Assembly: GCA_030697665.1 (NCBI GenBank)
Contig: JAUYPJ010000022.1
Span: 11 to 64,010 of the forward strand
From: Candidatus Omnitrophota bacterium
GTDB taxonomy: Bacteria; Omnitrophota; Gorgyraeia; Aquiviventales; Aquiviventaceae
Reading direction: 5' to 3'
DNA length: 64,000 bases
Each line of letters starts with the position of its first letter. Position 1 is the first letter of the stretch. The notes below the pieces were generated by a model that was not told the DNA's origin, searched no databases, and saw nothing but the letters and a program-made list of their open reading frames with translations. Both the position numbers and the translations under genes were made by a program. Below, piece by piece: positions 24,521 through 60,004 of the stretch.

Positions 24521-25329
24521 CTATTGATGTGCCTGAGCATGACCCCAACCACCTGGGAGGCGGTCAGATGCGAGGTATCGATCACGATGGCACCCGGCGG
24601 TGTGATCAGGGGACCGATGCGGCGGCTGCGGTCGAGGCCGTCCCGGAAGTGAAGCTGCTCCCGGACCTGGACCAAGGGGGGGCACGTGCCGTAGAGCGCC
24701 TTCAGCTCCCGCTGCCGGCGCCTGGCGCGAATCGCCGGCGTGGCATCCAGGAAAAACTTGCAGGCGGCATCCGGAAAGACCACGGAGCCGGTGTCTCTGC
24801 CCTCAACGACCATCCCATGGCGATTCGCGAGCGCCCGCTGACGCTCCACCATGGCCTCACGGACTTCCGGGTGCTGCGAGAGTTGCGCCGCGGCCTCGGA
24901 GATCTCTTCCGTGCGAATCTGCCGCGTGATGTCGAGCCCGCCGAGGCTGACGCGCGGCGAGCCCGCGGGGGCGCAGCGCAGGCGCAGCGGCAACCGGCGC
25001 GCCAGCGCCGCCAGCCGCTGGACGTCCGTCACCGGGTTGAGCCGCTCCCGATGGTCCCACCCCCTAGCGCTGCCCGAAGGGCCTGCGCCTGCGGCGCAGA
25101 TTCGCCTCCGGCGGATGCGCCAGGGGGTGGGATGGAGAGCCGCATAGGCGAGGGCGCGGTAGGTCGCCCCGGTGTCGAGGTAGGCGATCCCAAGACGCCG
25201 GGCCAGCCGTTGCGCCGCCGTGCTCTTGCCGACGCCGGCCGGGCCGTCGATGGTGATCACCAGTGACTGGGTGACTGGGTGACTGGGTGACTGGGTCGAA
25301 GAACGTGAGCGCTCAGTCGGGGAGGGCAT
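24487..25329 (-). CDS. cmk: Cytidylate kinase carrying a 26-aa in-frame insertion
   Basis: P-loop DGPAGVGKST. An alternative GTG start at 25260 (VITIDGPAG) would leave the 8-mer repeat outside the CDS. The insertion HPTPWRIRRRRICAAGAGPSGSARGW is encoded by a palindromic element. Confidence 0.9.
   Translation of the reverse strand: MPSPTERSRSSTQSPSHPVTQSLVITIDGPAGVGKSTAAQRLARRLGIAYLDTGATYRALAYAALHPTPWRIRRRRICAAGAGPSGSARGWDHRERLNPVTDVQRLAALARRLPLRLRCAPAGSPRVSLGGLDITRQIRTEEISEAAAQLSQHPEVREAMVERQRALANRHGMVVEGRDTGSVVFPDAACKFFLDATPAIRARRRQRELKALYGTCPPLVQVREQLHFRDGLDRSRRIGPLITPPGAIVIDTSHLTASQVVGVMLRHINSRPRSTVHCLR
25055..25132. repeat. CCCACC-terminated palindromic element, copy inside the cmk coding sequence (78 bp, in frame)
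   Basis: Termini are TCCCACCCCCTAGCGC and GCGCCAGGGGGTGGGA, complementary at 15 of 16 positions. There is an internal stem CTGCGCC-TGC-GGCGCAG. 78 nt equals 26 codons. Confidence 0.7.
25263..25296. repeat. Tandem 8-mer array GTGACTGG x4 (single arm)
   Basis: Read directly from the sequence. It lies between the tyrA stop (25313) and the cmk P-loop region. Confidence 0.85.
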
Positions 25330-26152
25330 GGCGGATGGCTTGCGCGCGGCGCAGGAACCTGCCTAATGCGGCCCGATCCCCATGCACGAGCTGGTCGCGC
25401 AGCAGGCGCCATCGTCGGTCAAACTGCTCACCGGCCGTGACGAGCGCCGAGGAATTGCTGAAGAAAATCTCGCTCCACAGCGCGGGGTCACTGCGCGCCA
25501 CGCGCGTCGCTTCGAGGAAACTCCTGGGCGCGATCGCCACAGCGCGAGGCGGTGTCGCCCCCACCAGGCAAAACGCCAAGAGGTGGGGCAGATGGCTGAC
25601 CGACGCCACGAGCCGATCATGGCGTTGAGGGTCCATGACCACGACCCGCCGCACCAGCGGCGCCCAGAGCCGGCGGACCACGCGCAGGGCCCGACGATCG
25701 GTCCGCGCCGTCGCCGTCAGGAGGCACAGCGATGCCTCAAACAGCTCCGCGCGGGAGGCGCGGATGCCGGACTGCTCGGAGCCGGCGAGGGGGTGGCCTC
25801 CAATGAACGACACCTGTGACGGCATCGATCGCTCCAGCGCCCGCACGATGCCTCCTTTGGTGCTGGCAACGTCGGTGAGGATGCTCCGCGCGGGCATGAA
25901 CGGCGCCAGGCGCTGCGCGATCGGGACGACCGCCTCCACCGGCGTGGCGATCACCACGACGTCCGCCGCGCCAACCGCCTGTCGGGGGTTGGTCGTGCCC
26001 TCATCGATGGCGCCCCGCCGCGCGGCCTCCCGCAGCGTCGAGGCCTTCCGGCTCAGCCCGATCACGCGGCGGGCCAGGTGATGGCGCCTGATCGCCATCC
26101 CCAGCGACCCGCCGATGAGCCCGAGTCCCACGATGGTGACTTGTTGAAACAT
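25313..26152 (-). CDS. tyrA: Prephenate/arogenate dehydrogenase
   Basis: The ATG at 26152 gives MFQQVTIVGLGLIGGSLG (Rossmann GxGxxG). The ORF track over-extends to 26473 through the upstream gene. Confidence 0.9.
   Translation of the reverse strand: MFQQVTIVGLGLIGGSLGMAIRRHHLARRVIGLSRKASTLREAARRGAIDEGTTNPRQAVGAADVVVIATPVEAVVPIAQRLAPFMPARSILTDVASTKGGIVRALERSMPSQVSFIGGHPLAGSEQSGIRASRAELFEASLCLLTATARTDRRALRVVRRLWAPLVRRVVVMDPQRHDRLVASVSHLPHLLAFCLVGATPPRAVAIAPRSFLEATRVARSDPALWSEIFFSNSSALVTAGEQFDRRWRLLRDQLVHGDRAALGRFLRRAQAIRHALPD
26089..26122. repeat. 34-bp perfect direct repeat, copy A (inside the functional tyrA 5' end)
   Basis: TGATCGCCATCCCCAGCGACCCGCCGATGAGCCC is identical to 27633..27666. 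Confidence 0.85.
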
Positions 26153-26160
26153 GGCGGACC

Positions 26161-27426
26161 TCAGATCAACAGCCACGGCAGCGGAACAGCCACGATGCGA
26201 TCTGTGACCAAAAAGGGCTCGCGCGTCCCGCAGGCCACGATGCCAAACGGCGCGCGCGGCTTGAGATCGCTCAACAACGTCTCCAGCCCTTTGCATTCGC
26301 TCCGGGTGGGTCGTGAGGACCATTTGATTTCGATCGGCAACAGGCGCGCTCCGCGCTCCACCAACAGATCCACCTCGGCCCCTGCCAGCGTTCTCCAGAA
26401 CCACAGTTGGATGCTCGGATCGAAGAGCTCCGTCAGCGTCTTCATCTCGGCGATCGCGAAATTCTCCAACCACGCGCCGCGGCGATCCGACGCCTCGAGC
26501 TGCTCCAATCCCCTGATGCCGGCCAACATCAACGCCAACCCCGTGTCCTCGGAGAAGATCTTTGGCGTTTTAGTCAACCGCTTACCGATATTCACATAGT
26601 ACGGCTCAAGACGAAACAGGTGACATCCCTGCTCCAACAACCCGAGATACCGGTCTACCGTATGATACGACACCCCCAACGCCTGGCCGAATGACGCCAG
26701 GTCTCGGAGTTGCGCCGCGCTCGCCGCGACGAGTCGCCAGACGCGACGGAACTCCTCACGGTGGCGAATCTCTCCGAAATCCGGCAGGTCTTTTTCTACG
26801 AACGCATCGACATAGGCTTCGAGCCATGCGAGGCGAAACGCTTCGCTGCGGCGCCGAGCCACCAGCTCCGGAAACCGTCCTTCGAGGAGATGCTGCGAGA
26901 GGTCTCGCGGGGAGAGGTGAACCCGGTCCGCCGTGGCATGGCACTGGTCAAGCGCCCGGCGCGCCGTCCGGGCCTTCAAACACTCCAGCAGGTGCGGGGC
27001 GTCGCCCACACGGCTCATGCGCTCGCGCAGCGAGAGGCCTCGGAGAAACAATCGGCTGGCACGACCGGCGAGACTTTCCGACACCCGCTTCAGCAGTAAA
27101 AAGTTGGCGGAGCCGGAGAGCAAGAAGCGCCCGGGTCGACGATGGCGATCCACCTGCTGCTTGATGGCATCGAACACCGCGGGGCTCTTCTGCGCTTCGT
27201 CAAGGAAGGCGGGGAGTCGCGCCCCCTCGATAAAGAGCTCTGGATCCTCGTTGGCGCGCTGCCGACTTCCGGAGTGATCGAAGGAGATGCGCTGCCCCAA
27301 GCGAAGCCGGTCGGAAAGCATGTCCACCAGGGTGGTTTTCCCCACCTGTCGCGCGCCCGAGACGAGCACCACCGGAAACTCCCGCCACAGGCGCAGCAGC
27401 CGCCCTTCCGCCTCGCGCTTGATCAT
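26161..27426 (-). CDS. AAA+ ATPase with a C-terminal DUF4143-like domain (COG1373-type)
   Basis: Walker A SGARQVGKTT. Walker B AFLDEAQ. The C-terminus (VDLLVERGARLLPIEIKWSS) is typical of DUF4143. Confidence 0.8.
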   Translation of the reverse strand: MIKREAEGRLLRLWREFPVVLVSGARQVGKTTLVDMLSDRLRLGQRISFDHSGSRQRANEDPELFIEGARLPAFLDEAQKSPAVFDAIKQQVDRHRRPGRFLLSGSANFLLLKRVSESLAGRASRLFLRGLSLRERMSRVGDAPHLLECLKARTARRALDQCHATADRVHLSPRDLSQHLLEGRFPELVARRRSEAFRLAWLEAYVDAFVEKDLPDFGEIRHREEFRRVWRLVAASAAQLRDLASFGQALGVSYHTVDRYLGLLEQGCHLFRLEPYYVNIGKRLTKTPKIFSEDTGLALMLAGIRGLEQLEASDRRGAWLENFAIAEMKTLTELFDPSIQLWFWRTLAGAEVDLLVERGARLLPIEIKWSSRPTRSECKGLETLLSDLKPRAPFGIVACGTREPFLVTDRIVAVPLPWLLI

Positions 27427-27560
27427 CCCACCACCTGTCGCTGGCTTCGCCCACGGCGAAGCCGCATCACGGGCATCGCGTGTCGAGCGGTCAAACCTGA
27501 TGTTCCTCTTGAGGTCGTGATACGTCCCGCCATCTGGCGGGACGCGACAGGTGGTGGGAT
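27425..27560. repeat. CCCACC-terminated palindromic element, 5'-UTR copy (136 bp)
   Basis: Termini ATCCCACCACCTGTCGC ... GCGACAGGTGGTGGGAT. The left end overlaps the ATG of the ATPase gene, and the right end is followed by CA (TGA on the minus strand). Confidence 0.8.
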
Positions 27561-27569
27561 CATACTTGT

Positions 27570-27598
27570 ATTATAGAATCTATAATGCTATTTTACAA
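27570..27598 (-). promoter_or_regulatory. Sigma70-like promoter (TTGTAA - 17 nt - TATAAT)
   Basis: The minus strand reads TTGTAA AATAGCATTATAGATTC TATAAT. The predicted start site lies just upstream of the palindromic element. Confidence 0.55.
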
Positions 27599-27632
27599 GT
27601 CTTGTAACCATCTCCCGCCAGCCGACGCCACG

Positions 27633-27702
27633 TGATCGCCATCCCCAGCGACCCGCCGATGAGCCCTCGCCCGACAATGGGAACACGGTTGAACAAAGCC
27701 AT
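27633..27702 (-). pseudogene. Relic 5' end of tyrA
   Basis: It encodes MALFNRVPIVGRGLIGGSLGMAI, compared with the functional MFQQVTIVGLGLIGGSLGMAI, and then diverges to a stop after 39 codons. It includes direct-repeat copy B (27633..27666). Its ATG lies 3 nt after the stop of the upstream ORF. Confidence 0.7.
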
Positions 27703-27705
27703 CGA

Positions 27706-28518
27706 TTAGTCCACGGACTCAGCTTCTGACACATTCGGACTCGTCACTCGTATACCGACAGCTTTCATGCGATCTTCTAAGATCGGACAGGAGTTGAGCA
27801 ATGCACAGATTCCCAACGCACCGAACAAGTATGAGTCTACGCATGGGCCGGAAGGACCATCGAAAGACCATGCCAAGGCTGTGAGGTGTTCAGGACGCTG
27901 GTAAGGGCATTCGAGTTGCTTGTAGTACCACGGAATATCCTCAACAACTATCTCTGGCTGACACATGCTGTTGCGAGTCACGAACCAAATGACATTGATC
28001 CCGCTTGGATCTAACTGGTTTTGCTTTTCGTTAATCGCTTCCAACACCAATGCTAGTCTGCCCTTGGACTTCTCGGGATCATCCTTGATTTCTTTGAGGA
28101 GTTCCGGTGAGTTGTCATCAGGAAGAGGCTGGTGCTTACAGACATACGTGGTTGTCTTCTCCTCAACCACATCGCCAGCGGCAGTCGCATGGTCGAACCG
28201 TCTTATCTCGACAATGACCCTTTGTCCCTCTCCAAGAGGAAGCACAACGTCATGTGGTCCGCGGGCCGGATGGAGTCTACAACGCTCCTCCAACCTGGGC
28301 TTTGGCCATTCTGTTCCTGGGAAAGTAAGAATCTGCGCCACTCTCAGCACTGCTAGGTGAGCATGAATATTTATGACGGTTCTTTCGTGCTTGATATTAC
28401 TCAAGACGCGCTCACCTCCCGTCCAGCCATAAGCAGCAACGAGATTCTCAGCTTCTTCACGTAGAACGTCGGCGAGATCTGTCCTCGGCGCAAAACACGT
28501 CTGGCATGGCTTGCTCAT
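27706..28518 (-). CDS. Hypothetical protein, Cys-rich, AT-richer, inside the aromatic amino-acid operon
   Basis: 270-aa ORF with no competing ORF on the other strand. I recognise no motif. Confidence 0.5.
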
Positions 28519-28540
28519 GGTTTAGAAGATCGGTTCCGTA

Positions 28541-28566
28541 CTATGGACTATGGACTACGGACTATA
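28541..28566. repeat. Tandem 7-mer array CTATGGA x3.5 (single arm)
   Basis: CTATGGACTATGGACTACGGACTATA. The aroF stop codon (TAG) lies inside the last unit. Confidence 0.85.
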
Positions 28567-29575
28567 AGGAACGTCCCACCACCTTCGCCACCTTCTTGAG
28601 TTCTTTCATCAGATGCGCGAAGCGCTCCGGCAAGAGTGACTGCGGCCCGTCGGAGAGCGCCGCCTCGGGGTTGGGGTGGACCTCGATCATCAACCCGTCC
28701 GCCCCGCCGGCCACGGCGGCTTTAGCCATCGGCTCGACGAGGTCCCAGTGGCCGGTCGCGTGGCTGGGATCGACCACCACCGGCAGATGCGAGAGCTTCT
28801 CGATGACCGGCACGGCCGCCAAGTCCAGCGTGAAGCGCGTCTGATCCTCGAAGGCCCGGATCCCGCGCTCGCACAGGATCACGTTGAAGTTGCCTTGGCT
28901 GACGATGTACTCCGCCGCCAGGAGAAACTCCGTGATCGTCGCCGACAAGCCCCGCTTGAGCAGTACCGCTTTGTGCGACTGGCCCGCTTCTTTCAACAAC
29001 TCGAAGTTCTGCATGTTGCGGGCGCCGATCTGGATGATGTCCGCGTATTTCTCGACGAGCTCGATCTCCCGCACGTCCATCAGCTCGGTGACGACTTTCA
29101 GGCCGGTCGCATCGCCCGCCTCCCGCAGGTACTTCAGACCCTCCTCCCCTAACCCCTGGAAGGAGTAAGGCGAGGTGCGCGGCTTGAACGCCCCGCCACG
29201 CAGGACTTGCGCGCCGGCCCGCTTGACCGCCTTGGCGGTGGCGAGGAGCATCTGCCGGTTCTCAACGGAGCAGGGCCCGGCCATCACCACCAGTTCCTTG
29301 CCGCCGATCTTCACGCCACCGATGCTGATCACGCTCGACTCGGGCTTGAACTCCCGCGAGACAAGCTTGTAGGGCTTGAGCACCGGGATCACCCTCTCGA
29401 CACCGGGGATGACCTCCAGCGGTTGAACCCGCAAGGCGTCTTCCGGGCCGATGACGCCGATGATGGTTCGCTCCGTCCCTTTGGAGACCATCGGCTTCAG
29501 GCCCAAGGCCTTGATCTTCTCCGCGAGATGGGCGATCTGCTGCTTGGTGGCGTTCGGCTTCAGCACGATAATCAT
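28562..29575 (-). CDS. aroF: 3-deoxy-7-phosphoheptulonate (DAHP) synthase, type I-beta, with an N-terminal regulatory domain
   Basis: 337 aa. The N-terminal ~70 aa form a ferredoxin-like/ACT-type domain ([14 protein letters not shown]...). A KDO8P/DAHP synthase I-beta core follows. Confidence 0.9.
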
Positions 29576-29603
29576 GCGTTATCCTCCTGTCATCGATGGG
29601 TTG

Positions 29604-29720
29604 GTGACTGGGTGACTGGGTGACTGAGTGACTGGGTCACGAACTGACAGAGGCATGGGACCTTTTGCATCTGCCCTTGCTGGTTCACTCAGTCACGCAG
29701 TCACACAGTCACTCAGTCAC
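29604..29720. repeat. Short-unit tandem inverted repeat (8-nt units GTGACTGG / CAGTCAC)
   Basis: Left arm GTGACTGG x4 (29604..29640), a 43-nt spacer, then right arm (T)TCACTCAGTCACGCAGTCACACAGTCACTCAGTCAC (29684..29720). The arms are complementary at about 7 of 8 positions per unit. Confidence 0.85.
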
Positions 29721-30810
29721 GAAGCGCGTGGGTGAGGCTGCGGATGAAGCGGCGGTTCTCGGCCATGGTGCCGATCGTCACGCGCAGGCAGCCCGAGAGC
29801 TTCCACGCGCTCATCTCGCGGACGATCACGCCGCGACGCAACAAGGCCTGCGCGACCTCCGGGGCCCGCGGACCCAACTCCAGCAGTAGGAAGTTCGTGA
29901 CGCTCGGCACGTACCGCACCTTGAGCGCATCCAACTGCGTGGTTAGGTAGCGGCGACCCTGCGCCATCGCCCGGCGCGTCCGCGTCAGAAACGCGCGATC
30001 CTCCATCGCCGCAACGGCGGCCGCCTGGGCGAGGCTGTTGACGTTGAACGGCTCGCGGACGGCGTTCATGGCGGCGATCAACGACGGCTGGGCGATCCCG
30101 TAGCCCACGCGCAGCCCGGCCAGCCCGTAGGCCTTGGAGAAGCTGCGGGTAACGATCAGCGGGTAGTCCTTGACGTAGGGCACCGTCCGCGGGTAATCGG
30201 GGGCCTCGACGAACTCGTGGTACGCCTCGTCCACCACGACGATCGCCTGAGGCGGCAGATCCCGCAGGAACGCCTTGAGCTCGCGCGCGGTGACGTAGGT
30301 GCCGGTCGGGTTATCCGGGTTGGCGATGTAGACGAGCTTCGTGTGGGGCGTCAGGGCGGCCTGCATGGCCGCCAGATCGTAGCGGTAGTTCCGCAGCGGC
30401 ACCGCGCTCACCGACGCGCCGCACGCCCTGGCCTGCAGCTCGTAGATCAGAAACGTTGGCGTCGCTACGACCACGTGCTCCCCGGGATCGACGAACGCCC
30501 GCAGCGCCAAGACGATCAGCTCGTCAGAGCCATTGCCAATGAGGAGCGACGCCGGCTCCACGCGCAGGGTTTTGGCCAGCGTCGCGCGCAGCTCGCGACA
30601 GGTCGCATCGGGATACCGATGCAGCGCCGTGGCGGCTGCGCGCAAGGCCGCCAGCGCTTTCGGCGAAGGCCCGAGCGCGTTCTCATTGGAGGCCAGCTTG
30701 ATGACCGAGTCGAGCTTGAACTGCCGCTTGACCTCTTCGATCGGCGTGCCGGGACGATACGTCTCAAGATGGCGCACCGCCGCGCGCGCCCGCGAGTCAA
30801 TGGCTGGCAT
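29713..30810 (-). CDS. hisC: Histidinol-phosphate/aromatic aminotransferase
   Basis: 365-aa class II aminotransferase (SFSKAYGLAGLRVGY with the PLP lysine). Confidence 0.9.
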   Translation of the reverse strand: MPAIDSRARAAVRHLETYRPGTPIEEVKRQFKLDSVIKLASNENALGPSPKALAALRAAATALHRYPDATCRELRATLAKTLRVEPASLLIGNGSDELIVLALRAFVDPGEHVVVATPTFLIYELQARACGASVSAVPLRNYRYDLAAMQAALTPHTKLVYIANPDNPTGTYVTARELKAFLRDLPPQAIVVVDEAYHEFVEAPDYPRTVPYVKDYPLIVTRSFSKAYGLAGLRVGYGIAQPSLIAAMNAVREPFNVNSLAQAAAVAAMEDRAFLTRTRRAMAQGRRYLTTQLDALKVRYVPSVTNFLLLELGPRAPEVAQALLRRGVIVREMSAWKLSGCLRVTIGTMAENRRFIRSLTHALRD

Positions 30811-30813
30811 CGC

Positions 30814-31650
30814 TCACCGCGTCATGGGATAGGAGCCCAGCACCCGCAGCAACGAGGTAGAACCTTCGAGCGCAGCCAAGGCCCGCTTGACCCGCGGCTC
30901 TGTGTCATGGCCTTCCAGATCGATGAAGAAGTAGTACTCCCATGCCTTACGCTTGGAGGGTCTCGATTCGATCTTCGTCAAATTGATGCGCGCCTGTTTA
31001 AAGGGGGCCAACGCATCATACAATGCGCCAGGCCGATCTTTGAGCGCAAAGAGCAGAGCCGTTTTGTTGTGACGGTGCCTGGGGGGTTTTCCAAGACCCA
31101 GCACCAAGAAGCGGGTTTTGTTCTCTCGTTCCTCCGGAATAGGCGTGGCTTTGAGACCCCATTCCTTCGCGGCTTCTTGACGTCCGATTGCAGCAACCGT
31201 TGGAACGAAACCAGGCACGGCTTCTACGACAGCTTTAACTGCCTCAGCAGTTGAACTGGTCTCAGCGAGCCGAACACGGTGCGGGAAATGGGTCTCGATC
31301 CACCTTCGGCATTGCGCGAGCGCCTGGGGATGCGAACAGACGACCTCAACCTTCGAAGGTGGCATGTCTGGGCGAGTGATGAGGTAGTGTTGAATCCGAT
31401 ACTCAACTTCCCCAACAATATTCACGGGCGTCTGTTTAAAATCGATAAACCGGTCGAGCGTGTGCGTCACCGCACCTTCAAGTGAATTCTCCACAGGCAC
31501 AACGCCGAAATTCACCTGCTCACGCTCAACGAACTGAAACACGTCGTCCACCGTCGGAGCGTGGACGTATTTCGCCCGCCGGCCGAACTTCTTTTGCGCG
31601 GCCACGTGGGTATTCGTGTGTTCAGGACCGAGATAGGCAATGGTTGGCAT
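30814..31650 (-). CDS. pheA: Prephenate dehydratase
   Basis: PDT domain plus a C-terminal ACT domain (TRFLVLG, ESRPS motif). Confidence 0.9.
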   Translation of the reverse strand: MPTIAYLGPEHTNTHVAAQKKFGRRAKYVHAPTVDDVFQFVEREQVNFGVVPVENSLEGAVTHTLDRFIDFKQTPVNIVGEVEYRIQHYLITRPDMPPSKVEVVCSHPQALAQCRRWIETHFPHRVRLAETSSTAEAVKAVVEAVPGFVPTVAAIGRQEAAKEWGLKATPIPEERENKTRFLVLGLGKPPRHRHNKTALLFALKDRPGALYDALAPFKQARINLTKIESRPSKRKAWEYYFFIDLEGHDTEPRVKRALAALEGSTSLLRVLGSYPMTR

Positions 31651-31659
31651 CGGGTAGAG

Positions 31660-31956
31660 TCAGACCGATCGCTCAAGGCGGCGAATCTGGCGCAGGATCT
31701 CGCGATAGATCGCGCGCACCGCTTGAGCGGGCAGCGGCCCAGGGTTGGCGCTGACCACCTGGCGCAGGATCGCTCCCTCCCGACGGCCGTCAAAGACGGG
31801 CAGCCCGCGCTGCTGCTTGAGGCGGCCCACCCGCAGGGCGAGCGCCGCGCGCTGGTTCAACACGCGCAGCAACCGCAGGTCGATGCGGTCAATCTGCTGC
31901 CGCAGCGCAGGCAGGTGCTGGCCCTGAGGGGATCTGTTCCGCTTCCGGGGACTCAT
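31660..31956 (-). CDS. Chorismate mutase (AroQ class)
   Basis: The internal ATG at 31956 gives LPALRQQIDRIDLRLLRVLNQRAALALRVGRLK, typical of AroQ. The 5' end overlaps the scpB tail. Confidence 0.8.
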   Translation of the reverse strand: MSPRKRNRSPQGQHLPALRQQIDRIDLRLLRVLNQRAALALRVGRLKQQRGLPVFDGRREGAILRQVVSANPGPLPAQAVRAIYREILRQIRRLERSV

Positions 31957-32524
31957 GTGGTGTCTGGTGGAGCCCCACCGGCGACCCACCAGCCGTCGGT
32001 TCTTTGATCGCCGGCAGGTCAATCGTCGGCAGCGCCTCCAGCGACTTCAGGCCGAAATGGCGCAGGAACTCCGTGGTGGTGCCGTACAGAAACGGACGGC
32101 CGGGGCTCTCCTTGCGACCTGCCACACGGAGGAAACCACGGACCATCAAGGTCTCCAGCGACGCGGTCACATCGACGCCGCGGACGGCCTCGATGTCGGC
32201 CTTGGTGATCGGTTGCCGGTACGCCACGATGGCCAACGTTTCGAGCGCGGCCTGGCTGACCGCATCCGGCTTGGGACTCTGGAGCGCGCGCCGGATCCAC
32301 GGGGCCAGCTGCTCGTCGGTCACGAGCTGGTAGCCCCCGGCGACCTCCTGGATGCGAAAGGCCCGTCCGGAAGCGGTGTACTCGGCGTTGAGCGTCTCGA
32401 TGAGCCGCCGGATCTCAACGGGCGCGACCTCCGGCATGACGTGCGCCAACCGCTTGAGCGCCAGCGGCTCCCCGCAGACAAACAGGAGCGCCTCCACAAT
32501 CCGCTTGCTATCCGCTTCACCCAT
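31889..32524 (-). CDS. scpB: Segregation and condensation protein B
   Basis: IVEALLFVCGEPL...GGYQLVT...VAYRQPITKADIEAVRGV is the ScpB winged-helix repeat pattern. Confidence 0.9.
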   Translation of the reverse strand: MGEADSKRIVEALLFVCGEPLALKRLAHVMPEVAPVEIRRLIETLNAEYTASGRAFRIQEVAGGYQLVTDEQLAPWIRRALQSPKPDAVSQAALETLAIVAYRQPITKADIEAVRGVDVTASLETLMVRGFLRVAGRKESPGRPFLYGTTTEFLRHFGLKSLEALPTIDLPAIKEPTAGGSPVGLHQTPHESPEAEQIPSGPAPACAAAAD

Positions 32525-32526
32525 TT

Positions 32527-34268: not shown

Positions 34269-34284
34269 CAACAACAGGATTGAC

Positions 34285-46784: not shown

Positions 46785-46794
46785 CTGTGCCGGG

Positions 46795-49510: not shown

Positions 49511-50875
<1,365 letters not shown>

Positions 50876-50880
<5 letters not shown>

Positions 50881-52465: not shown

Positions 52466-52472
52466 CGTTCTT

Positions 52473-52618
52473 AGTCCATAGTCCACAGTCCATAGTCCAT
52501 AGAATCCAGAAAGCAGAAGGCGGTAGGCAGAAGGCAGTGAACAGATCGCGACACGATGCTGCCGACTACGTTCTGCATGCTGCCTTCTTTGCACTACGGA
52601 CTATGGACTATGGACTCT
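52473..52618. repeat. Compound short-unit tandem inverted repeat (GTCCATA x4 + CAGAAGG-type units / complements)
   Basis: The left half is AGTCCATAGTCCACAGTCCATAGTCCATAG followed by CAGAAAGCAGAAGGCGGTAGGCAGAAGGCAG. The right half is CTGCC...TTCTGCATGCTGCCTTCTTTG followed by CTACGGACTATGGACTATGGACTCT. The right end encodes the aminotransferase C-terminus (ESIVHSP then TAG). Confidence 0.85.
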
Positions 52619-53742
52619 AACATAGCGCGGGCAGCCTGAACCCCTGTTCCAGCAGCGACCTCGTGCCCTAATGCCACGAGCGCTCCTTCGAGGGCGGCCA
52701 GCCCCGCCAGGATGTCGCCGGGACCGATATGGCCCATATGGGCGATCCGCACCACCTTGCCCGCCATCTCGCCTTGTCCGCCTGCGATCATCACGTGCGA
52801 TCGATCGTACATCAGCTTGGCCAACGACTTGCCGTCGATCCCCTCCGGCACGCGAATCGCCGTCACGCCGTTCGACGGACGCTGCGCAAAAAGGCGAAGC
52901 CCCATCGCCTCGACGCCGGAGCGCGTCGCCTGCGCCATGAGCCCGCAGCGCTGGAGCACCTTCGGCACGCCCTCCTGGAGGATGAGCGTCAGCGCCTCGT
53001 CGAGCGCCACCACCAGCGACACGGCGGAGGTAAACGGCGTGTCGTCATCGGCCAGGGCCTTGCGGTACCCTCGCAGGTCCGTGTAGAAGCGAGGCGTCTT
53101 CGCCTCGTTCACGAGCGCCCACGCCCGCTCGCTGAGGCTGAGAAACGCCAACCCCGGCGGGAGCATCAACCCTTTCTGCGAACCGGTCACGAGCACGTCC
53201 ACCCCCCAGGCATCGGTCTGGCACTCATCCGCGAGCAGCCCGCTGATCGCATCCACGACCAACACGGCCCGGCTGGCGCGCGTCACGGCGGCCAGGGCCT
53301 GGATGTCGGGCACGCCGCCGGTGGAGGTCTCGCACAGCGTGGCGAACATGGCCTTCGCCTTCGGATGCGCCCGGAGGATGGAGGCCGCGCGCTCGGGATC
53401 CACCGCCTCGCCGTAGGCGACCGGCACCGGCGCCGCGCGGATCCCGTAGGCGGCGCACACCTCCTGCCAGCGCTCCCCGAACTTCCCGCCGAGCACGACG
53501 ATCGCCTCATCACCCGGCGAGAGGAGGTTGACCACCGAGGCTTCCATCGCGCCGGTCCCGGAGCTCGTCAGGCAGACGACGGGTTGCGCGGTCTGCATCA
53601 CCGCCTGCATCCGCTGGAGCACGCGGCGGAACAGGCTGCGGTACTGGCTGGTGCGGTGGTGGATGATGGGCCGACCGAGCGCCTCGCGCACCTGCGGCGG
53701 CAAGGGGGTCGGACCCGGTGTGAGAAGGATGTCCCCGCTCAT
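52594..53742 (-). CDS. Class V aminotransferase (serine-pyruvate/alanine-glyoxylate or phosphoserine aminotransferase type)
   Basis: PGPTPLP N-terminus and TGSQKGLMLPPG (PLP lysine). It is adjacent to serA. Confidence 0.85.
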   Translation of the reverse strand: MSGDILLTPGPTPLPPQVREALGRPIIHHRTSQYRSLFRRVLQRMQAVMQTAQPVVCLTSSGTGAMEASVVNLLSPGDEAIVVLGGKFGERWQEVCAAYGIRAAPVPVAYGEAVDPERAASILRAHPKAKAMFATLCETSTGGVPDIQALAAVTRASRAVLVVDAISGLLADECQTDAWGVDVLVTGSQKGLMLPPGLAFLSLSERAWALVNEAKTPRFYTDLRGYRKALADDDTPFTSAVSLVVALDEALTLILQEGVPKVLQRCGLMAQATRSGVEAMGLRLFAQRPSNGVTAIRVPEGIDGKSLAKLMYDRSHVMIAGGQGEMAGKVVRIAHMGHIGPGDILAGLAALEGALVALGHEVAAGTGVQAARAMLESIVHSP

Positions 53743-53852
53743 CCCACCACCTGCCTCGGCCAGCCCAGGGCTGGCCGCGCACTCGCGGTGGCTCCGACGA
53801 TCCGGCGTGGCGCGAGTGCGCCAGCCGAAGGCTGAGAGGCAGGTGGTGGGAT
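53741..53852. repeat. CCCACC-terminated palindromic element (112 bp) filling the gap from the clpP stop to the aminotransferase start
   Basis: ATCCCACCACCTGCCTC ... GAGGCAGGTGGTGGGAT. It differs at 3 of 112 positions from 59893..60004 by manual alignment. Its ends overlap the TGA of clpP and the ATG of the next gene. Confidence 0.9.
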
Positions 53853-54472
53853 CACTTCTTCACCACCTTGGCCTTGCTGTAGAGCACTTCGTCGACGATC
53901 CCGTACTCCTTCGCCTCCTCCGCCGACATGAAGTAGTCGCGGTCGGTGTCCTTCTGGATCTTCTCCAGGGATTGGCTGGTGTGCTTGACGAGCAGCTCGT
54001 TGATCTTCTCGCGCAGCCGCAGGATCTCCCGCGCCTGGATCGAGATGTCCGTGGCCGCCCCCTCCGCGCCCCCCCACGGCTGATGGATCATGATGCGCGC
54101 GGCGGGTAGCGCAAATCGCTTGCCTTTGGTCCCGGCGCACAGGAGCAACGCCCCCATGCTCGCCGCCTGGCCGACGCAGTAGGTCGCCACGGGGGGCTTG
54201 ACGAACTGGATCGTGTCGTAGACCGCCAGCCCCGCCGTCACGGACCCGCCGGGGGTATTGACGTAGACGCTGATCTCTCGATCCGGATCCTCATTCTGGA
54301 GGAAGAGGAGCTGCGCGATGATCAGGTTGGAGACCATGTCATCGATGGGGGTGCCCACGAAGATGATGCGATCCTTGAGCAGACGAGAGTAGATGTCGTA
54401 GGCGCGCTCCCCGCGCGGCGACTGCTCCACCACCATCGGCACCAGCACCTGTCCCTGCTCGCTCATGTTCAC
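53852..54472 (-). CDS. clpP: ATP-dependent Clp protease proteolytic subunit
   Basis: GQAASMGA (active-site Ser) and IMIHQP (His). Confidence 0.95.
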
Positions 54473-55518
54473 CTCGATGTTATTGAGTCAGCCTCTTCGA
54501 TGTGGGCGACACTCAGCAAGAAACTGATCGTCTTCTCCCGACGAATGGCGGAGAGGACCGACGGCCAGAGCCCCTTGTCGTCAAAGATCTTCCTGACCTC
54601 CACCGGATCCTTCTTCCAGCGCCGCGACACCTGCCAGAGACGATCCAGCAGCTCATGCTCCGTCACGGTGAGCGCCTCTTGCGTCGCGATGCGATCGAGG
54701 ATGAAGGTAAGCTTCACCTGCTGTTGCGCGCTCGTGCGGAGCTGCTCGGTAAACGCGGCCACCCGCTCCTGCACCTGCGGCTCCGGCATGCCGGAGAGGA
54801 GCAGGCGGACGGTGAACTCCCGCGTGAGCCGCTCGGTCTGGTGGCCCACCAACTGCGGGGGGACCTCGAAGGCGTGCCGCTCCAGCAGCGCCTGACACAC
54901 GGCGGCCTCGAGCGCCTCGGCGCGCGCCGCCCGCTTCTGCTCCCGCAGCTTCGCCTCCAGATGCTCCTTGAGTTGCGCCAAGTGTCCAAATCCCACGTCC
55001 TTCGCCAGCTCGTCATCGATGGGAGGCAGGCGTCGCTCCTTCGCCTCGCCCTGCCCGGAGGGGACGAGCTGCGCCATCGACTCCCGCAGCGCGGCAAGCG
55101 CTTTGTCGACGTCCTCCGGGGTCACCTCCGTCGAAGGGGGCTGCAGCGGGATGCCGCGGTAGGCTGCCAAGGCGAACGACGGCTCCACTTCCACGCTCGC
55201 GTCAAAACGCAACCCCTCGGTCTCGTTGAAGTCGGTGGCGGTCACCTCAAAGGGCCCCACCGGCTTGAGGTCGTGATCCTTGGCCGCCTGCTCAAGCGCC
55301 TGCCGCGTGACGCGGCGCATGGTCTCCTCGCGGAGGGGCTGGGCGTATTGCCGCTCCACCAGATCCGCCGGGGCTTTGCCGCGGCGAAACCCCGGTAGAA
55401 CGGTCCGTCGCTGGAGCTCCGTCAGTACCGTCTCCCGCACCGGGCTCATCGCCTCGGGACGCACGTGCAGACGCAGGCGCTTTTGGCAGGGGGCCGGCTC
55501 ACTGATCTGCACGCTCAC
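54469..55518 (-). CDS. tig: Trigger factor lacking the PPIase (FKBP) domain
   Basis: A GTG at 55518 puts the GFRRGKAP motif at residues 43-50, as in E. coli Tig. The N-domain and C-terminal arms are present, but only GQGEAK sits where the ~95-aa FKBP domain is expected. Confidence 0.8.
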
Positions 55519-55676
55519 CGGAAGGGCTGCGGTTGTTCCGCCGAGCTGAGGACGCGGGGTGGCATCGGCAGATTGGGCTGATGGTCGAGCGCGTCGGCGA
55601 AACCACATATTAGCCGTTGGACCATTGTGCCATTAATCCAATGACCCAATAGCTCATGAAATGCGACCTCACGTGG

Positions 55677-56399
55677 TTAGAGACGGAACTTCTCACCCAG
55701 GTAGATCTCCTTCGCCCGCGGGTCCGTGATCAGCTCGTGGGCGGTCCCGGCAATGAGCACGCGGCCTTCCGCCATGATGTAGGCCCGGTCGGTGATCTCC
55801 AGGGTTTCGCGCACGTTGTGATCGGTCAACAGGATCCCGAGGCCGCGCTGCCTGAGCTCGCGGATGATCTCCTGCGCTTCAAAGACGGTGATGGGGTCGA
55901 TCCCGGAAAAGGGCTCATCGAGCAGGATGAACTGCGGATTCGTCACCAACGCCCGGGTGATCTCCAGGCGGCGCTTCTCGCCTCCTGAGAGCGTATACGC
56001 CTTCTGACGCGCCAGGTGGGTGATCCCCAGCTCGTTGAGGAGGCGATCCAGCCGCTGGCGTCTGATGGAGAGGGGCAGATGGAGCGACTCCAAAATCGCC
56101 AGGATGTTCTGTTCCACCGTCAGCTTCCGGAAGATGGAGGGCTCCTGGGCCAGATAGCCGACGCCCAAGCGGGCCCGCTGATACATGGGGATGTCGGTCA
56201 CGTCACGCTCATCCAGGATGATGCGTCCCCCGTCCGGTCTGATGTAGCCGACGATCATCGCGAACGTCGTGGTCTTGCCCGCCCCGTTCGGGCCGAGCAG
56301 CCCCACGATCTCCCCGCGCCCCACCCGGATCTCCACGCCGTCGACGACGGGACGCCCGTTGTAGCCCTTCACCACGTGTTCGGTTCGCAGGACCTGCAT
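55677..56399 (-). CDS. lptB: LPS export ABC transporter ATP-binding protein
   Basis: Walker [10 protein letters not shown], signature LSGGEKRR, Walker B ILLDEP. Confidence 0.92.
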
Positions 56400-56404
56400 G
56401 GTCG

Positions 56405-58321
56405 TCAGGGATGGGTGGCGCTCGCAAGCTCGGTGGCGTGCGGCGTGAGCGTTCCCACGGCATCGGGCGCCGCCGCGGCGGGCTGCAGGGGCTTCGAGGC
56501 GGTGGGAACGGCACTGATCCCGTGGAAGGCGCCCGGGAGACCCGGGCCGCCCCCGGACGGAAAGAGCAGCAACCTGGGCTTGCCGATCAGCGTGACCTTG
56601 CCGGGCGTCGGCTCATACACCGCGCGCTCGCCGGTGGCCCGATCGTGGCCGTGATGGACCCGGACCCGCCCGATCGCCTCGGCGTAGCGGATCGTGTGCC
56701 GCGCCGAATCGAGATACGCGATAAGCACATCCGAGAACAGCTCACCCTGCGGGTCCGTGACATGCACGTTGCGCTCAAACGTCGCCACGCTGTGCTCATA
56801 GTCGAACGACAACGGACCGTCGCACGTGATCGTCACATGCGCCGATCCCTCCGCCTGCGGGTCCTGGTCGCCCGGGTTGAGCACGAGCTCAACATCCTCC
56901 ATGAGCTTCGCCTGTTTGAGCTGGGTCAAGGCGCTGGCCCCTCGACCGCGCAGCAGCATGTGATCGGTCTCGATCCGCACCGGCGTCTCCGTGGCCACCT
57001 GGTTCTGGTCGGGGATCCAGTGCAGCACCGGGGCCGCCAGCCACCACCCATCATTGGTGTGGATGGTCACCTCGTGCTCCATCCGGACGTGACGGCTGGT
57101 CTGATCCATCTCGGCGACCCTCGCGGTCAGATACGCCACGCGGGCCAGATCGTAGCCGACGGCATCGGGCCAATGGATGGTCACGAGGTTGCCATCCACG
57201 CTGGCCTCCCGCCCCGTCATCTCCCATCGCTTGGAGCCGTCCAGCTCATACCCGGTCAAGGTGAACGCGCTCATCTGTTGGGTGGGCTCTGACGCAGAGG
57301 CCGCGGGCCGCGCGGGCCGCGCACAGCCGATGAGCGAGGTGACGAGCAACCACCCGCTCATCATGAAGGCCGCCCGCGAGGGGTCAGGCTGGACGGTGGG
57401 CTGCGTCGAGACGTCCCCGCAGGTCGCCTGCCGCGACCCCGGCTGGGTTTTCCAGCGACGGTGCATCCAGACCCAGTGATCGGGATAGCGTCGCACGTAC
57501 GACTCGACGACGGCGCTCCAGGATGCGGTGAGTTCGGTCATCGCCTCCAACCGGTTCGGCGCCTGAGCCGCCGCCACGGGAGGCTCAATGACGAGACGGA
57601 AGCGGCGGCCTTCCCGGATGATGAAACAGGGGAGCATCGGCGCCCCGCTCAGGAGCGAGAGGGCGGCCGGCCCGAGCGGGGTGTAGGCCGGGCGGCCAAA
57701 GAACGGCACGAACAACCCGTCAAGACTGTCCACGTCCTGATCGGGCACGATCCCGAGGAGGTGATTGGCCCGCAGGAGCCTCACCGCGTCCTTCATGGCG
57801 CCGCGGGCGAGCGTCGTCACCCCTTGGCTGCCGCGCAGCTCCATCAAGAATGCGTCGTATTCGGGGTAGCGCAGGGGGCGCGCCACGACGGCCCCGTCAA
57901 ATCCCCGACTGCGCAGGTAGAGCGGGATCAGCTCCCAATTGCCGAAGTGGGCCCCGACCAGAATCGCCCCGCGCCCGCGCGCCAGCGCCTGGCGCAGATG
58001 GACAAGCCCCTCGCACGTGATGAGCTGGTGGAGCCGCCGGGTCGAGCAGGCCGGGAGCGCCATCCATTCCATGACGGTCTGTCCCAGGTTGACAAAGACC
58101 CGCAGCCCAAGGCGCCTGCGCTGTGCGGGGCTCAGCGTCTCCCCGAAGGCCTGGTGAAGATGCTCCCCGGTCAGTCGTCGCTGACTCCCCAGGAGCCCAT
58201 AGGCCAGCACGCCAAGGCCCCGGCCGAGCGCGCGCGCAACCCCCAGCGGCAGCACCCGCCCGACTCCTCGCAACCCCTGGAAGCCCAGGTACATGAGACG
58301 ACGGCGGATGGGATGCTTCAT
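56405..58321 (-). CDS. Single ORF fusing an LpxL/HtrB-type lipid A acyltransferase (aa 1-~300) to an LptC/LptA (OstA)-like lipoprotein module (aa 320-638)
   Basis: The N-terminal half ends with the typical [16 protein letters not shown]. In-frame [14 protein letters not shown] (lipobox L-I-G-C) begins at 57364. The C-terminal half has LptC-like and OstA_N-like beta-jellyroll patterns. lptB follows 5 nt downstream. Confidence 0.7.
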
Positions 58322-58470
58322 CCCCCCACCTGCGCCTCACGGCGGCCCGTAGTTTCAACCTCCGTAGCCGCCGTGACGAATGCAACGGCCAGACGCACCA
58401 TCCAAACAGTCTCCAACAGCAGACGCATTCGAGCCCCGCCTTTTGGCGGGGCTGGCGTAGGTGGGGGGAT
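58320..58470. repeat. CCCACC-terminated palindromic element, 5'-UTR copy (151 bp)
   Basis: ATCCCCCCACCTGCGCC ... GGCGTAGGTGGGGGGAT. The left end overlaps the ATG of the lpxL-fusion gene. It contains internal hairpins, including GAGCCCCGCC-TTTT-GGCGGGGCT. Confidence 0.8.
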
Positions 58471-58489
58471 CATCACGACACAAACTTGT

Positions 58490-58518
58490 ATGATACGCTC
58501 TTGCGTCTAGAGCGTCAA
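58490..58518 (-). promoter_or_regulatory. Sigma70-like promoter (TTGACG - 17 nt - TATCAT)
   Basis: The minus strand reads TTGACG CTCTAGACGCAAGAGCG TATCAT ACAAGTTTG. The post -10 sequence ACAAGT(A/T)TG is shared with the promoter at 27570..27598. The spacer holds the inverted repeat CGCTCT/AGAGCG. Confidence 0.5.
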
Positions 58519-58540
58519 TGCAAATATGGATTCGGTGGAG

Positions 58541-58587
58541 CCCCCCGCGGCTTGTTTTCGAGGTCGGAAACTGAGAAAACAGCGGGG
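58541..58587. repeat. Hairpin repeat family 2, copy B
   Basis: CCCCCCGCGGCTTGTTTTCGAGGTCGGAAACTGAGAAAACAGCGGGGG. It is the reverse complement of 20209..20254. Confidence 0.75.
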
Positions 58588-58760
58588 GCGCGTCGAGGGG
58601 TTACCCTTCGATCCTTCGACTCGGCTGCTGCCTCGCTCAGGATCGTGGTGAGCGAGCCGAGGCGAGTCGAACCACGACTTCGCTCACCTCGTGCCGAGCA
58701 CGGCCCTCGGTGCGAGGCAGGGTAAATGCGCCCAATGTGAAGATGCCATTGTGGGCGCAT

Positions 58761-59894
58761 TTAGAAGTATTCGGTCAGGAGGGTCTTCGTGCGGTGGATG
58801 AGTCGATTCAGCGCGTGCGGCGAAGGCGGCGGCGTGCTGCGCGCGGTGCCTGTGGCCTGCTCCAGCAGTCCCAGCGCCGCGCTCAGGCCGAGCTGGCGCG
58901 AGAGATCGCTCAGCGCGCTGGTCCGTGGACTGCGACACAGCGTCACGGGCAGATGGGTCCGCCGTTCGATCCACTCGGCCAATCCGTCGATCAAGGCCCC
59001 GCGCCCGGTCAAGAAGGCGGCATCCGGTTGAGGCTGGTTCGTGAGGAGCCCTTCGACGGCTGCCGGGATCGAGGCCCACCGGCGTTCGATGACCTCACGG
59101 ACCGGCGCCCGCCTGCAGGACGTCCCTTCCAAACTCCACGCCGTCGCCTGGTCCATCGTCACCCGAAGCGTCGTGGCAAGCTCCGTCGCCAGCGTCAGCC
59201 CGCCCCAGGGCAGGATGGCCGCCGCGCACCAGGTGCCGTCGACGAACAATCCCACGCCGGTCGAGCGGCCACCGACGTCGATGAGGAGCGCGCGGGCTCG
59301 ACAGTGCGCCTCCTCCGCCATGCTGGAGAAGACAGCGGGCAACGTGGAGTTCAACTGGGCGATCTCAAGGCCCGCTCCCTCAACCGCCTGGACCACGGCG
59401 CGGCGCAGCGCCACCGGCATCGTCACGATGTGAAAGGCGCCGCGAAGACGCGTCGCCGGAAGACCCTGGGGGTCGCGGATCCCTTCAAACCCGTTGCCCG
59501 AGCAGCCGAGGCATTCCACCACCAAGGGCTCTCGATCAAGCCCAACACCCTGGTCGAGCGCCCGCCGCCGCAGCCGATCCACGTCCTGCGCGCGAATCGA
59601 CACCGGCTCATCGGCCAACGGGAGAGTCGCCTGGACGATCTCGCTGGTCAAGGCTGGATGGTCGAAGGCCACCAGCGCGCGTTGGACGTGGGCGCTGACC
59701 GCCGTCGCCTCAAGCGCCTGCTCAATCGTCCGGCTCACCATGAGCGGGTCTGCCGACCACAGCTCCGAGAGCGCCGCGTAGGGAATGAGGCTGCTGCCCA
59801 TGAGCGTGAAGCCGGGGGCCTGCTCGTGCGGCAGGCCGATGGCGCAGGCGACCTTGGTGGATCCGAGATCGAGGGCCACGAGCGGCTGGATCAT
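58761..59894 (-). CDS. ftsA: Cell division protein FtsA (divergent)
   Basis: The ATG at 59894 gives MIQPLVALDLGSTKVACAIG. Actin-like ATPase fold and a C-terminal amphipathic helix (LNRLIHRTKTLLTEYF). Confidence 0.85.
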   Translation of the reverse strand: MIQPLVALDLGSTKVACAIGLPHEQAPGFTLMGSSLIPYAALSELWSADPLMVSRTIEQALEATAVSAHVQRALVAFDHPALTSEIVQATLPLADEPVSIRAQDVDRLRRRALDQGVGLDREPLVVECLGCSGNGFEGIRDPQGLPATRLRGAFHIVTMPVALRRAVVQAVEGAGLEIAQLNSTLPAVFSSMAEEAHCRARALLIDVGGRSTGVGLFVDGTWCAAAILPWGGLTLATELATTLRVTMDQATAWSLEGTSCRRAPVREVIERRWASIPAAVEGLLTNQPQPDAAFLTGRGALIDGLAEWIERRTHLPVTLCRSPRTSALSDLSRQLGLSAALGLLEQATGTARSTPPPSPHALNRLIHRTKTLLTEYF

Positions 59895-60004
59895 CCCACC
59901 ACCTGCCTCGGCCAGCCCACGGCTGGCCGCGCACTCGCGGTGGCTCCGACGATCCGGCATGGCGCGAGTGCGCCAGCCGAAGGCTGAGAGGTAGGTGGTG
60001 GGAT
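59893..60004. repeat. CCCACC-terminated palindromic element (112 bp) filling the gap from the ftsQ stop to the ftsA start
   Basis: ATCCCACCACCTGCCTC ... GAGGTAGGTGGTGGGAT, a near-identical copy of 53741..53852. Its ends overlap the TGA of ftsQ and the ATG of ftsA. Confidence 0.9.

Follow-up and report, generated by a model that had tools for sequence, protein, structure and literature searches.

Five palindromic elements lie in a 64-kb stretch of Candidatus Omnitrophota DNA (contig JAUYPJ010000022.1, positions 11 to 64,010; the whole of this stretch is referred to as the window), and four of them fill the space between a TGA and the ATG of the following gene. How a palindrome comes to fit such junctions so exactly is the question that this locus raises. 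A preliminary description took the shared layout for a bridge designed to join stop and start codons. The answer reached here is a different one. [quoted passage not shown] On the same reading, which is judged probable as a whole, they are selfish, and their design makes insertion at a gene start nearly harmless. The copies are numbered by their position; all of them, like all the genes associated with them, are on the minus strand.

Copy 1, 25055..25132, minus strand: 78 nt with the arm variant TCCCACCCCCT, in frame within the cytidylate kinase gene cmk (24487-25329); target duplication CCA (TGG on the plus strand) at 25133-25135 and 25052-25054; 27 residues are added to Cmk (PTPWRIRRRRICAAGAGPSGSARGWDH).
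Copy 2, 27426..27559, minus strand: 134 nt, with a promoter-like site on one side and a DUF4143/AAA_14 ATPase gene (26161-27426) on the other; TGA duplication at 27560-27562 and 27423-27425.
Copy 3, 53742..53851, minus strand: 110 nt, with clpP on one side and a class-V aminotransferase gene on the other; TGA duplication at 53852-53854 (the clpP stop) and at 53739-53741; a GTG (GTGA overlap) was the old start, and the rebuilt one is an ATG at 53742-53740.
Copy 4, 58321..58469, minus strand: 149 nt with the arm variant TCCCCCCACCT, with a promoter-like site on one side and the gene at 56405-58321 on the other; TGA duplication at 58470-58472 and 58318-58320.
Copy 5, 59894..60003, minus strand: 110 nt at the ftsQ/ftsA junction; TGA duplication at 60004-60006 (the ftsQ stop) and 59891-59893; the rebuilt ftsA ATG is made of the element's final A (59894) and TG.

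All five copies carry the termini that had been attributed to them, which are inverted repeats of 12 nt each (TCCCMCCMCCTG ... CAGGKGGKGGGA). The limits first given were exact for 25055-25132 and too wide by one flanking base per side for the other four. With at most one mismatch allowed, the window contains 11 occurrences of the terminal motif TCCCMCCMCCTR, against 2.8 +/- 1.7 in shuffled sequence (11 was reached in 0 of 100 shuffles), and the two-armed pattern gives 7 strand-matches where 0 are expected (none in shuffles). Copies 3 and 5, rightly described as nearly identical, show 3 differences over 110 positions (97% identity).

What had gone unnoticed is that the trinucleotide flanking each copy is a direct repeat, TGA in four copies and CCA in the cmk copy. 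The four intergenic copies do share one layout, which on the coding (minus) strand reads TGA-TCCC...GGGA-TGA, hence ATG-A after each, and the left TGA is indeed the real stop codon of clpP (53852-54472) and ftsQ (60004-60840). However, this layout is no designed bridge; it results when an element enters the TGA of an NTGA start/stop overlap and duplicates that TGA. The remark that the second codon always starts with A has the same explanation, because the flanking TGA is duplicated. The gene downstream of copy 3 is not clpX but encodes a class-V aminotransferase. The gene downstream of copy 5 is ftsA, and the length of FtsA homologues (376-378 aa) agrees with a start at the rebuilt ATG. The best matches of the proteins point to Candidatus Omnitrophota. 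About 8-10 NTGA overlaps among the long minus-strand open reading frames (ORFs) of the window are still without an element.

Two empty sites in close relatives, whose loci were reached via homologous proteins, prove insertion. In the metagenomic relative L001, with an FtsA that is 95% identical, the ftsQ/ftsA junction has an intact ATGA overlap (ggtccATGAtccagccgc). The same junction in the window reads ggttcATGA, 110 nt and TGAtccagccgc, and differs from L001 only by the element and a TGA. At the cmk site of L117 (relative P0123) a single CCA stands in place of the CCA, 78 nt and CCA of the window, i.e. exactly 81 nt fewer, between flanks that are ~98% identical. The proteins agree with this picture. 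The 27-residue insert, which follows the conserved AALH, is present in the Cmk of the window and of P0122 and absent from P0123 and seven other homologues, and the alignment of the window Cmk to E. coli Cmk breaks right after AALH. Further, a second member of the family, which is not in the window, stands in frame at a different codon of cmk in both P0122 and P0123 (VPPPV...TGGG). This insert is located at ~1490-1600 of L117 (VPPPVCPAANRRG...TGGG); P0122 has both inserts and P0123 this one alone. The elements have therefore moved recently and repeatedly. Collectively, the family shows the hallmarks of MITEs: terminal inverted repeats, a target duplication of fixed length, filled and empty sites, and small size and multiple copies with no transposase gene. 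Of the two kinds of spread suggested in the preliminary description, the MITE-like one is supported by the inverted repeats, the 3-bp duplication and the two empty sites, while the REP/RAYT-like one is disfavoured by the duplication.

The same pattern holds beyond the window. A collection with one genome per species was scanned with both arms specified exactly and with interiors of 54-114 nt, which returned at least 112 stretches; the census counts given here and below are among the matches listed. Nearly all of these are labelled Omnitrophota or are metagenome-assembled genomes with doubtful labels. The stored loci and the window together hold at least 130 elements, and the loci alone at least 126 pattern matches. 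Identical 3-bp flanks are present in ~108 of the 126 matches listed and vary in sequence: 86 are TGA/TCA, 10 are TAA/TTA, and there are a few TGG/CCA, CGA, TTG, CTT and CGC. T at position 1 and A at position 3 of the duplication occur together in 96 of the 126. Flanks are available for 106 copies, 87 of them with a TGA duplication. The elements are 29 to 158 nt in size, and the perfect complementarity of their arms reaches a median of 16 nt (106 elements). The interiors had been called unrelated, and this is borne out by the 80 sequence clusters into which the 106 elements fall. Where copies are related, their length differences are multiples of 3. Copies in frame within genes are a minority, found in cmk, in Ddl (L072) and in another ORF (L069).

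The census also reveals where the elements sit. Among the 87 TGA-flanked copies, 73 have an A immediately 5' of the left TGA, 7 a G, 5 a T and 2 a C, and the base 3' of the right TGA is uniform. As A, G or T precedes the TGA in 85 of 87, the original site was a start codon overlapping the TGA. Surviving copies stand overwhelmingly in the TGA of NTGA, which is either the stop codon of an upstream gene or part of the first bases of a promoter-proximal gene. An initial null, which asked at every TGA for an NTG with an ORF of 100 codons or more behind it, gave 20% positives in GC-rich DNA and was dropped as too permissive in favour of ATGA sites and internal controls. The rebuilt ATG opens an ORF of 80 codons or more in 65 of 87 copies, and 43 of the 87 additionally have an ORF of this size that ends at the left TGA; for random ATGA sites taken from the same DNA the values are 29% and 4%, respectively. 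The concentration at stop/start junctions, first seen in the window, extends to more than 100 copies from other genomes.

In such a site the geometry of the element repairs the damage. The left TGA keeps the upstream stop. The final A of the element and the TG of the right copy rebuild an ATG, which also turns GTG or TTG into ATG (at copy 3, a GTGA overlap became ATGA), and the A of the right TGA restores the second codon. The old start opens a relay mini-ORF (M-I-P-P-P...Q-V-V-G), the stop of which recreates an ATGA overlap with the real gene. The overlap layout is in this way recreated twice per element, once between the upstream stop and the relay start and once between the relay stop and the start of the gene. 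Four copies in the window have such a frame.

Relay mini-ORF of copy 2, 27423..27563, minus strand: 46 codons from the ATG at 27563-27561.
Relay mini-ORF of copy 3, 53739..53855, minus strand: GTG start, VIPPPASQ...PRQVVG and stop.
Relay mini-ORF of copy 4, 58318..58473, minus strand: 51 codons, MIPPPTPAPP...REAQVGG and stop.
Relay mini-ORF of copy 5, 59891..60007, minus strand: 38 codons, MIPPPTSQPSAGALAPCRIVGATASARPAVGWPRQVVG and stop, from the old ftsA ATG (60007-60005) as far as the TGA at 59893-59891, with which the rebuilt ATG overlaps.

At gene starts, selection favours copies with a length of 3n+2 and a stop-free frame. Element length modulo 3 is 2, 0 or 1 in 70, 11 and 6 of the 87 TGA-flanked elements, and in 50, 8 and 6 of 64 when counted by sequence cluster (binomial p = 2.6e-13). 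Copies with a gene at the rebuilt ATG are 3n+2 in 64 of 72 cases. No such bias is seen in TGA copies without flanking genes (5/5/3) or in copies with non-TGA duplications (3/7/5; Fisher p = 1e-5 for TGA-flanked versus non-TGA copies). The frame of the old start is open to exactly the right-hand TGA, where it ends because the length is 3n+2, in 66 of the 70 3n+2 copies. Among the same 70, the other two frames are stop-free in only 30 and 28, the flipped element in 35, and shuffled interiors in 31 +/- 3.9 (maximum 43, 200 trials). The relay peptides start with M/V/L-I-P-P-P and end with Q-V-(V/G)-G, because these ends are encoded by the arms, and are unrelated in between. The only codon-position signal in the relay frames is a low T at position 1, i.e. 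stop avoidance, with no other periodicity; selection therefore acts for an open frame and not for a peptide. In short copies (<90 nt) 3n is about as frequent as 3n+2, and the short 3n copies either read on into the downstream gene, to which they add an N-terminal extension, or stand in frame inside genes. The rarest class, 3n+1 (6 of 87), would lead ribosomes out of frame across the rebuilt start. The link to translational coupling that had been proposed has strong statistics of the reading frame behind it, namely the 3n+2 lengths and the open relay frames.

How such a frame may work can be put in a few conditional steps. Coupling by termination and re-initiation needs overlaps or very short distances, as stated in excerpts of two papers (PMC6728339, PMC10666635), and a 110-nt spacer by itself would break it. 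Ribosomes would load at the old start through coupling at the upstream ATGA, through the old Shine–Dalgarno sequence (SD) inside the upstream gene, or at a leaderless 5' end. Translation of the relay ORF would then unwind a stable fold that otherwise buries the SD and the AUG, and termination at the TGA over the rebuilt ATG would permit re-initiation or give access to a fresh ribosome. Short 3n copies would be tolerated either in frame within a gene, of which cmk is an example, or as an extension of the N-terminus. The preliminary description had the hairpin melted by a ribosome terminating at the upstream TGA. This is compatible with the relay model but inapplicable to promoter-proximal copies, and the evidence points to the relay mini-ORF instead of, or in addition to, such melting. 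The insulator and thermosensor ideas of the same description have no specific support.

Two features of the sequence bear on these steps. The 3' arm sets AGGTG 5 nt before the rebuilt ATG, and as AGGTG is complementary to the conserved 3' tail of 16S rRNA, it is a candidate SD. Ordinary genes of the window use canonical SDs of the GGAGG type (e.g. at 29575, 20843 and 17921), and therefore the arms are not a local SD consensus. The motif AGGTGGKGGGATG occurs in the window at the four elements only; the count of SD motifs around ORF starts behind this statement is crude and noisy and serves only for the presence of GGAGG and the distribution of AGGTGGKGGGATG. Further, copies 2 and 4 have no upstream gene but promoter-like boxes. 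At copy 2 these are TTGTAA-17-TATAAT (27598-27570, 10 of 12 matches), with TATAAT 6 nt before the old ATG. The gene as it was before insertion therefore looks leaderless. At copy 4 the boxes are TTGACG-17-TATCAT (58518-58490), 16 nt before the old ATG.

Several points weigh against this account. The translation of the relay ORFs, the role of AGGTG as an SD and the formerly leaderless status of the gene behind copy 2 are all read from the DNA sequence. The relay function leaves an elaborate and conserved fold unexplained, and stability of this order should hinder translation. About 70% of the copies stand on start codons, though neutral intergenic TNA sites should outnumber these, and targeting and selection cannot be separated here. 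Among inverted-repeat pairs 220-4000 bp apart with matching flanks in 0.86 Mb, no autonomous insertion sequence (IS) or other parent with these ends was found; in all of these distant pairs, the two ends belong to different small copies. Ten ORFs in low-GC segments of the window were scanned against Pfam, which gave defence genes, toxin-antitoxin genes and a LAGLIDADG-like ORF and no transposase domain. Elements of the IS5 and PIF-Harbinger types make TNA-like 3-bp duplications, of which the TNA-type target of the present family is only reminiscent; the paper that was checked does not state this target rule, and no IS5-type end is known to match the end sequence of the family. Finally, the census pattern under-samples decayed or longer copies.

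As coding-strand RNA, the window copies are predicted to fold with -60.8 to -96.3 kcal/mol and z-scores of -6 to -8.7 (copy 4, -96.3 kcal/mol; copy 2, -85.8 kcal/mol and z -8.7). The arms form the closing stem, and AGGUG and the A of AUG are paired in the prediction, in line with the earlier proposal that the hairpin buries the SD and the start codon. The terminal stem is closed in 106 of 106 elements, 77 of which have three hairpin loops, and the interiors, taken by themselves, exceed shuffled sequence in stability (median z -3.8). The stem comprises 16 bp, of which 12 are conserved and 4 covary, with position 17 unpaired in 89 of 106. Each of pairs 13-16, which lie outside the search pattern, occurs in four pair types, and only 3 to 16 of 106 are unpaired. 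Likewise, the arm variants at positions 5 and 8 agree between the two ends in 101 of 106. The folding and covariation analysis called for in the preliminary description thus gave stable folds and a covarying closing stem, but its view of the 5' arm as a mimic of the anti-SD is not needed, as this arm is the inverted repeat of the 3' arm and the two covary. Inside the stem, an essentially linker-free junction and two GC hairpins of 7-9 bp with triloops and a recurrent YGCC-NNN-GGCR apex are arranged around a variable central hairpin, and this fold is kept despite unrelated sequences (e.g. window 53742-53851). No excess of G-U pairs, which would be specific to RNA, was found in the stems. At pair 12, A-C mismatches outnumber G-U (5 versus 1, not significant), because TAG is avoided in the relay frame. 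Rfam 15, with its thermometers, leaders and riboswitches, at the gathering score matched the tRNA at 3691-3772 alone and no element in the window, and a search of 53600-60100 (copies 3-5) with E up to 1 gave no match.

One way to account for this architecture is a portable translational gate, in which the 16-bp stem would shut off the SD and the AUG until the relay ORF is translated; another is that the fold would be the substrate of an undescribed transposition enzyme that recognises structure. That either of the two applies is rather unlikely. If the gate were real, the opening of the stem, and with it the expression of dozens to hundreds of genes per genome, would hinge on translation upstream and, via the Met-Ile-Pro-Pro-Pro start of the relay, on elongation factor P (EF-P).

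Somewhat further along this line, the elements could be regulatory modules that benefit the host, with mobility being secondary, the hairpin gating translation in response to upstream coupling, to EF-P (through the invariant Pro-Pro-Pro at relay codons 3-5) or to temperature. Burial of the SD and AUG in folds of -60 to -96 kcal/mol, the covariation and the fixed 16 bp of the closing stem, interior hairpins that beat shuffled sequence, the M/V/L-I-P-P-P start of every relay peptide and the retention of the old start codon in 85 of 87 copies would all be expected of such a module. However, the Pro-Pro-Pro codons are dictated by the sequence of the inverted repeat. Presence and absence vary among strains that are 95-98% identical, at essential genes (the ftsQ/ftsA junction and cmk), and in an 85% relative this junction is occupied by an unrelated palindrome. 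Further, the downstream genes have no functional relation to one another, and copies also occur in frame within genes and in gene-free DNA. A regulatory module is therefore considered unlikely.

The second alternative keeps mobility but makes it dependent on the fold or on single-stranded DNA, as in REP/REPIN sequences moved by RAYT or in IS200/IS605-type elements, so that the enzyme would read the fold and not the ends. It would readily explain why an architecture of a 16-bp covarying stem, a linker-free junction, two GC hairpins, triloops and YGCC-NNN-GGCR apices is kept around unrelated interiors, and it fits the failure to find a parent of the DDE type among the distant repeat pairs of 0.86 Mb and in the ten window ORFs. 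In contrast, the large majority of copies show a clean 3-bp duplication of varied sequence (TGA, TAA, TGG/CCA, CGA, TTG, CTT, CGC), at odds with REP/REPIN sequences, the marks of which are a conserved tetranucleotide beside a palindrome of 20-40 nt, an associated RAYT gene and the absence of target duplication, and the 12-nt ends are conserved in sequence across host loci of 38 to 71% G+C. HUH/Y1 elements are not known to make a duplication, and they insert beside a fixed tetra- or pentanucleotide. This explanation is very unlikely.

Alternatively, the transposase might simply recognise ATGA, with master copies that happen to be 3n+2 and no selection linked to translation. Of the 10 TAA-flanked copies, in which no start is rebuilt, 7 do have an A ahead of the duplication, positions -2 to -4 are mildly G-rich like the element's own GGGA-TGA end, and tandem copies show that the element junction is itself a target. 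An intrinsic bias of this kind does not explain why the 3n+2 excess vanishes without a downstream gene (5/5/3) and in non-TGA copies (3/7/5), or why the sense frame is open in 66 of 70 and the flipped one in only 35. GTGA and TTGA sites number 12 versus 2 for CTGA and are nearly all ahead of long ORFs, and of a symmetric enzyme one would not expect that the base following the duplication is uniform. Little probability, a shade below that of fold-dependent movement, is left to it.

The idea that there is no element at all, the termini being a local SD consensus with chance upstream complements, can appeal to the clpP 3' end, which naturally has AAGGTGGTG before the old GTG, and to the complementarity of AGGTG to the 16S 3' tail, but is already refuted by more than 100 paired-arm copies where 0 are expected, by the empty sites at ftsQ/ftsA and cmk, and by GGAGG-type SDs at ordinary genes with AGGTGGKGGGATG confined to four elements.

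With transposition of a MITE as the preferred reading, the nearest functional precedent for a relay ORF between coupled genes, as far as excerpts of the literature tell, are the mycobacterial interspersed repetitive units (MIRUs). According to an excerpt of a later account (Supply et al. 1997, via PMC3184786), MIRUs are intergenic operon repeats of 40-100 bp that are part of polycistronic mRNA and have ORFs overlapping the genes on either side; that they, too, inserted is suggested by the existence of filled as well as empty sites and by short direct repeats (PMC3184786). A MIRU-like ORF overlapping both neighbours is found in 66 of the 70 3n+2 copies, and 43 of 87 TGA-flanked copies stand between two long ORFs. 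As portrayed in that excerpt, however, MIRUs are mainly tandem direct repeats (variable number tandem repeats) of Mycobacterium with imperfect inverted repeats, tetranucleotide direct repeats and ~40-50 copies, whereas the present family, from another phylum, consists of single palindromic units with few back-to-back pairs, bears inverted repeats that are perfect over 12 nt, has a covarying stem of 16 bp, rebuilds stop and start by a 3-bp TGA duplication, supplies an SD and obeys the 3n+2 rule.

The tolerated in-frame copies recall the Rickettsia palindromic elements (RPEs), mobile repeats that are inserted in frame in unrelated genes and translated as extra segments (Ogata et al. 2000, via an excerpt of PMC10969869). 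RPE-like inserts are seen here as 27 residues in Cmk and also in Ddl and another protein. RPEs are ~150 bp long and known for intragenic insertion, and the excerpt does not describe them at start/stop overlaps or as rebuilding starts, whereas the present family is mostly at gene starts. The REP2 repeats of Neisseria supply a ribosome-binding site together with an ATG (PMC3184786). Unlike the present elements, REP2 is without terminal inverted repeats and has a promoter; no target duplication or relay ORF is on record for it, nor is it known how it spreads. The IR repeats of Borrelia are grouped with Neisseria REP2 as related systems (PMC3184786).

Among mobile elements proper, the Correia/NEMIS, RUP and ERIC families provide the comparison. 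In the present family the interiors are unrelated in sequence and the fold is kept. Classical bacterial MITE families duplicate TA or longer targets, their members have a recognisable common interior, and they are not known to stand on start codons. Otherwise they are likewise small and multi-copy, with inverted repeats, a target duplication and no transposase gene, and their RNA folds are likewise stable and co-transcribed with the neighbours (PMC10969869, PMC3184786). A 2024 review of prokaryotic MITEs makes no mention of start codons, stop codons or SDs (PMC10969869), and a literature search found no account of Omnitrophota repeats or of MITEs that target start codons. None of these precedents joins perfect inverted repeats, a TGA duplication that rebuilds ATGA, an SD and a 3n+2 relay frame. 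The family is best rated as a MITE that relays like a MIRU and is tolerated in frame like an RPE.

On this reading, a transposon has settled the riskiest sites of a compact genome, 4-nt overlaps in essential operons such as ftsQ/ftsA and even the coding sequence of cmk, by carrying all the parts needed to mend its own lesion. The 3n+2 rule and an open frame without codon bias would be a rare, purely genomic sign of ribosomes that translate a mobile element only for passage. For the annotation of Omnitrophota and other uncultivated lineages, it would mean that starts are misplaced at the elements and that relay ORFs and in-frame inserts are overlooked. For translation research and synthetic biology, the family would offer a natural and diverse set of relay ORFs that restore coupling over 80-150 nt of very stable structure, and the idea of gating by EF-P is testable.

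Some further members and genes deserve a brief description. The smallest member (L090, 4141-4169) is 29 nt long and consists of the two 12-nt arms and a 5-nt loop; it has a TCA duplication and is 3n+2. Back-to-back pairs of different members with one common TGA, their relay ORFs chained, occur at L050 63-342, L065 3136-3436 and L062 5599-5884; the right junction of an element, GGGA-TGA, recreates the preferred target. In the window, the ftsA ORF as mechanically called (58761-59960) continues into copy 5 for 22 codons, as no stop interrupts this frame of the element, and cmk on record was started later (257 aa versus the 280-aa ORF). The gene behind copy 4 (56405-58321) is a 638-aa ORF that joins LpxL-type lipid A acyltransferase, LptC and LptA/LptD-N-like domains in an unusual fusion. 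The sole match on a viral contig (IMG/VR, L118 3203-3318) was rejected as a member; it is a chance poly-C/poly-G palindrome without a duplication. As it encloses repeated TGTGGATAA motifs, which are DnaA-box-like, it could be a replication origin.

A second kind of intergenic palindrome, which is unrelated to the family, is built of inverted tandem units of 7-8 nt (AGTCCAT, GTGACTG, GAAGAACT) and is found at 52473-52616 and 29604-29720 of the window and at 6820-6915 of L004. One of these directly follows the stop codon of the aminotransferase gene and another precedes a gene that has a canonical AGGAGG SD; in the 85% relative, a palindrome of this kind fills the ftsQ/ftsA junction, the place of copy 5 in the window. 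At ~6450-9500 the window has a block of low GC content (56-58% G+C) with a BrnA/CopG-type antitoxin, a caspase-like peptidase C14, a ThsB-like TIR protein and RadC, which may be a defence island. Finally, the LAGLIDADG-like ORF (2957-3667) adjoins the only tRNA gene of the window (3691-3772).

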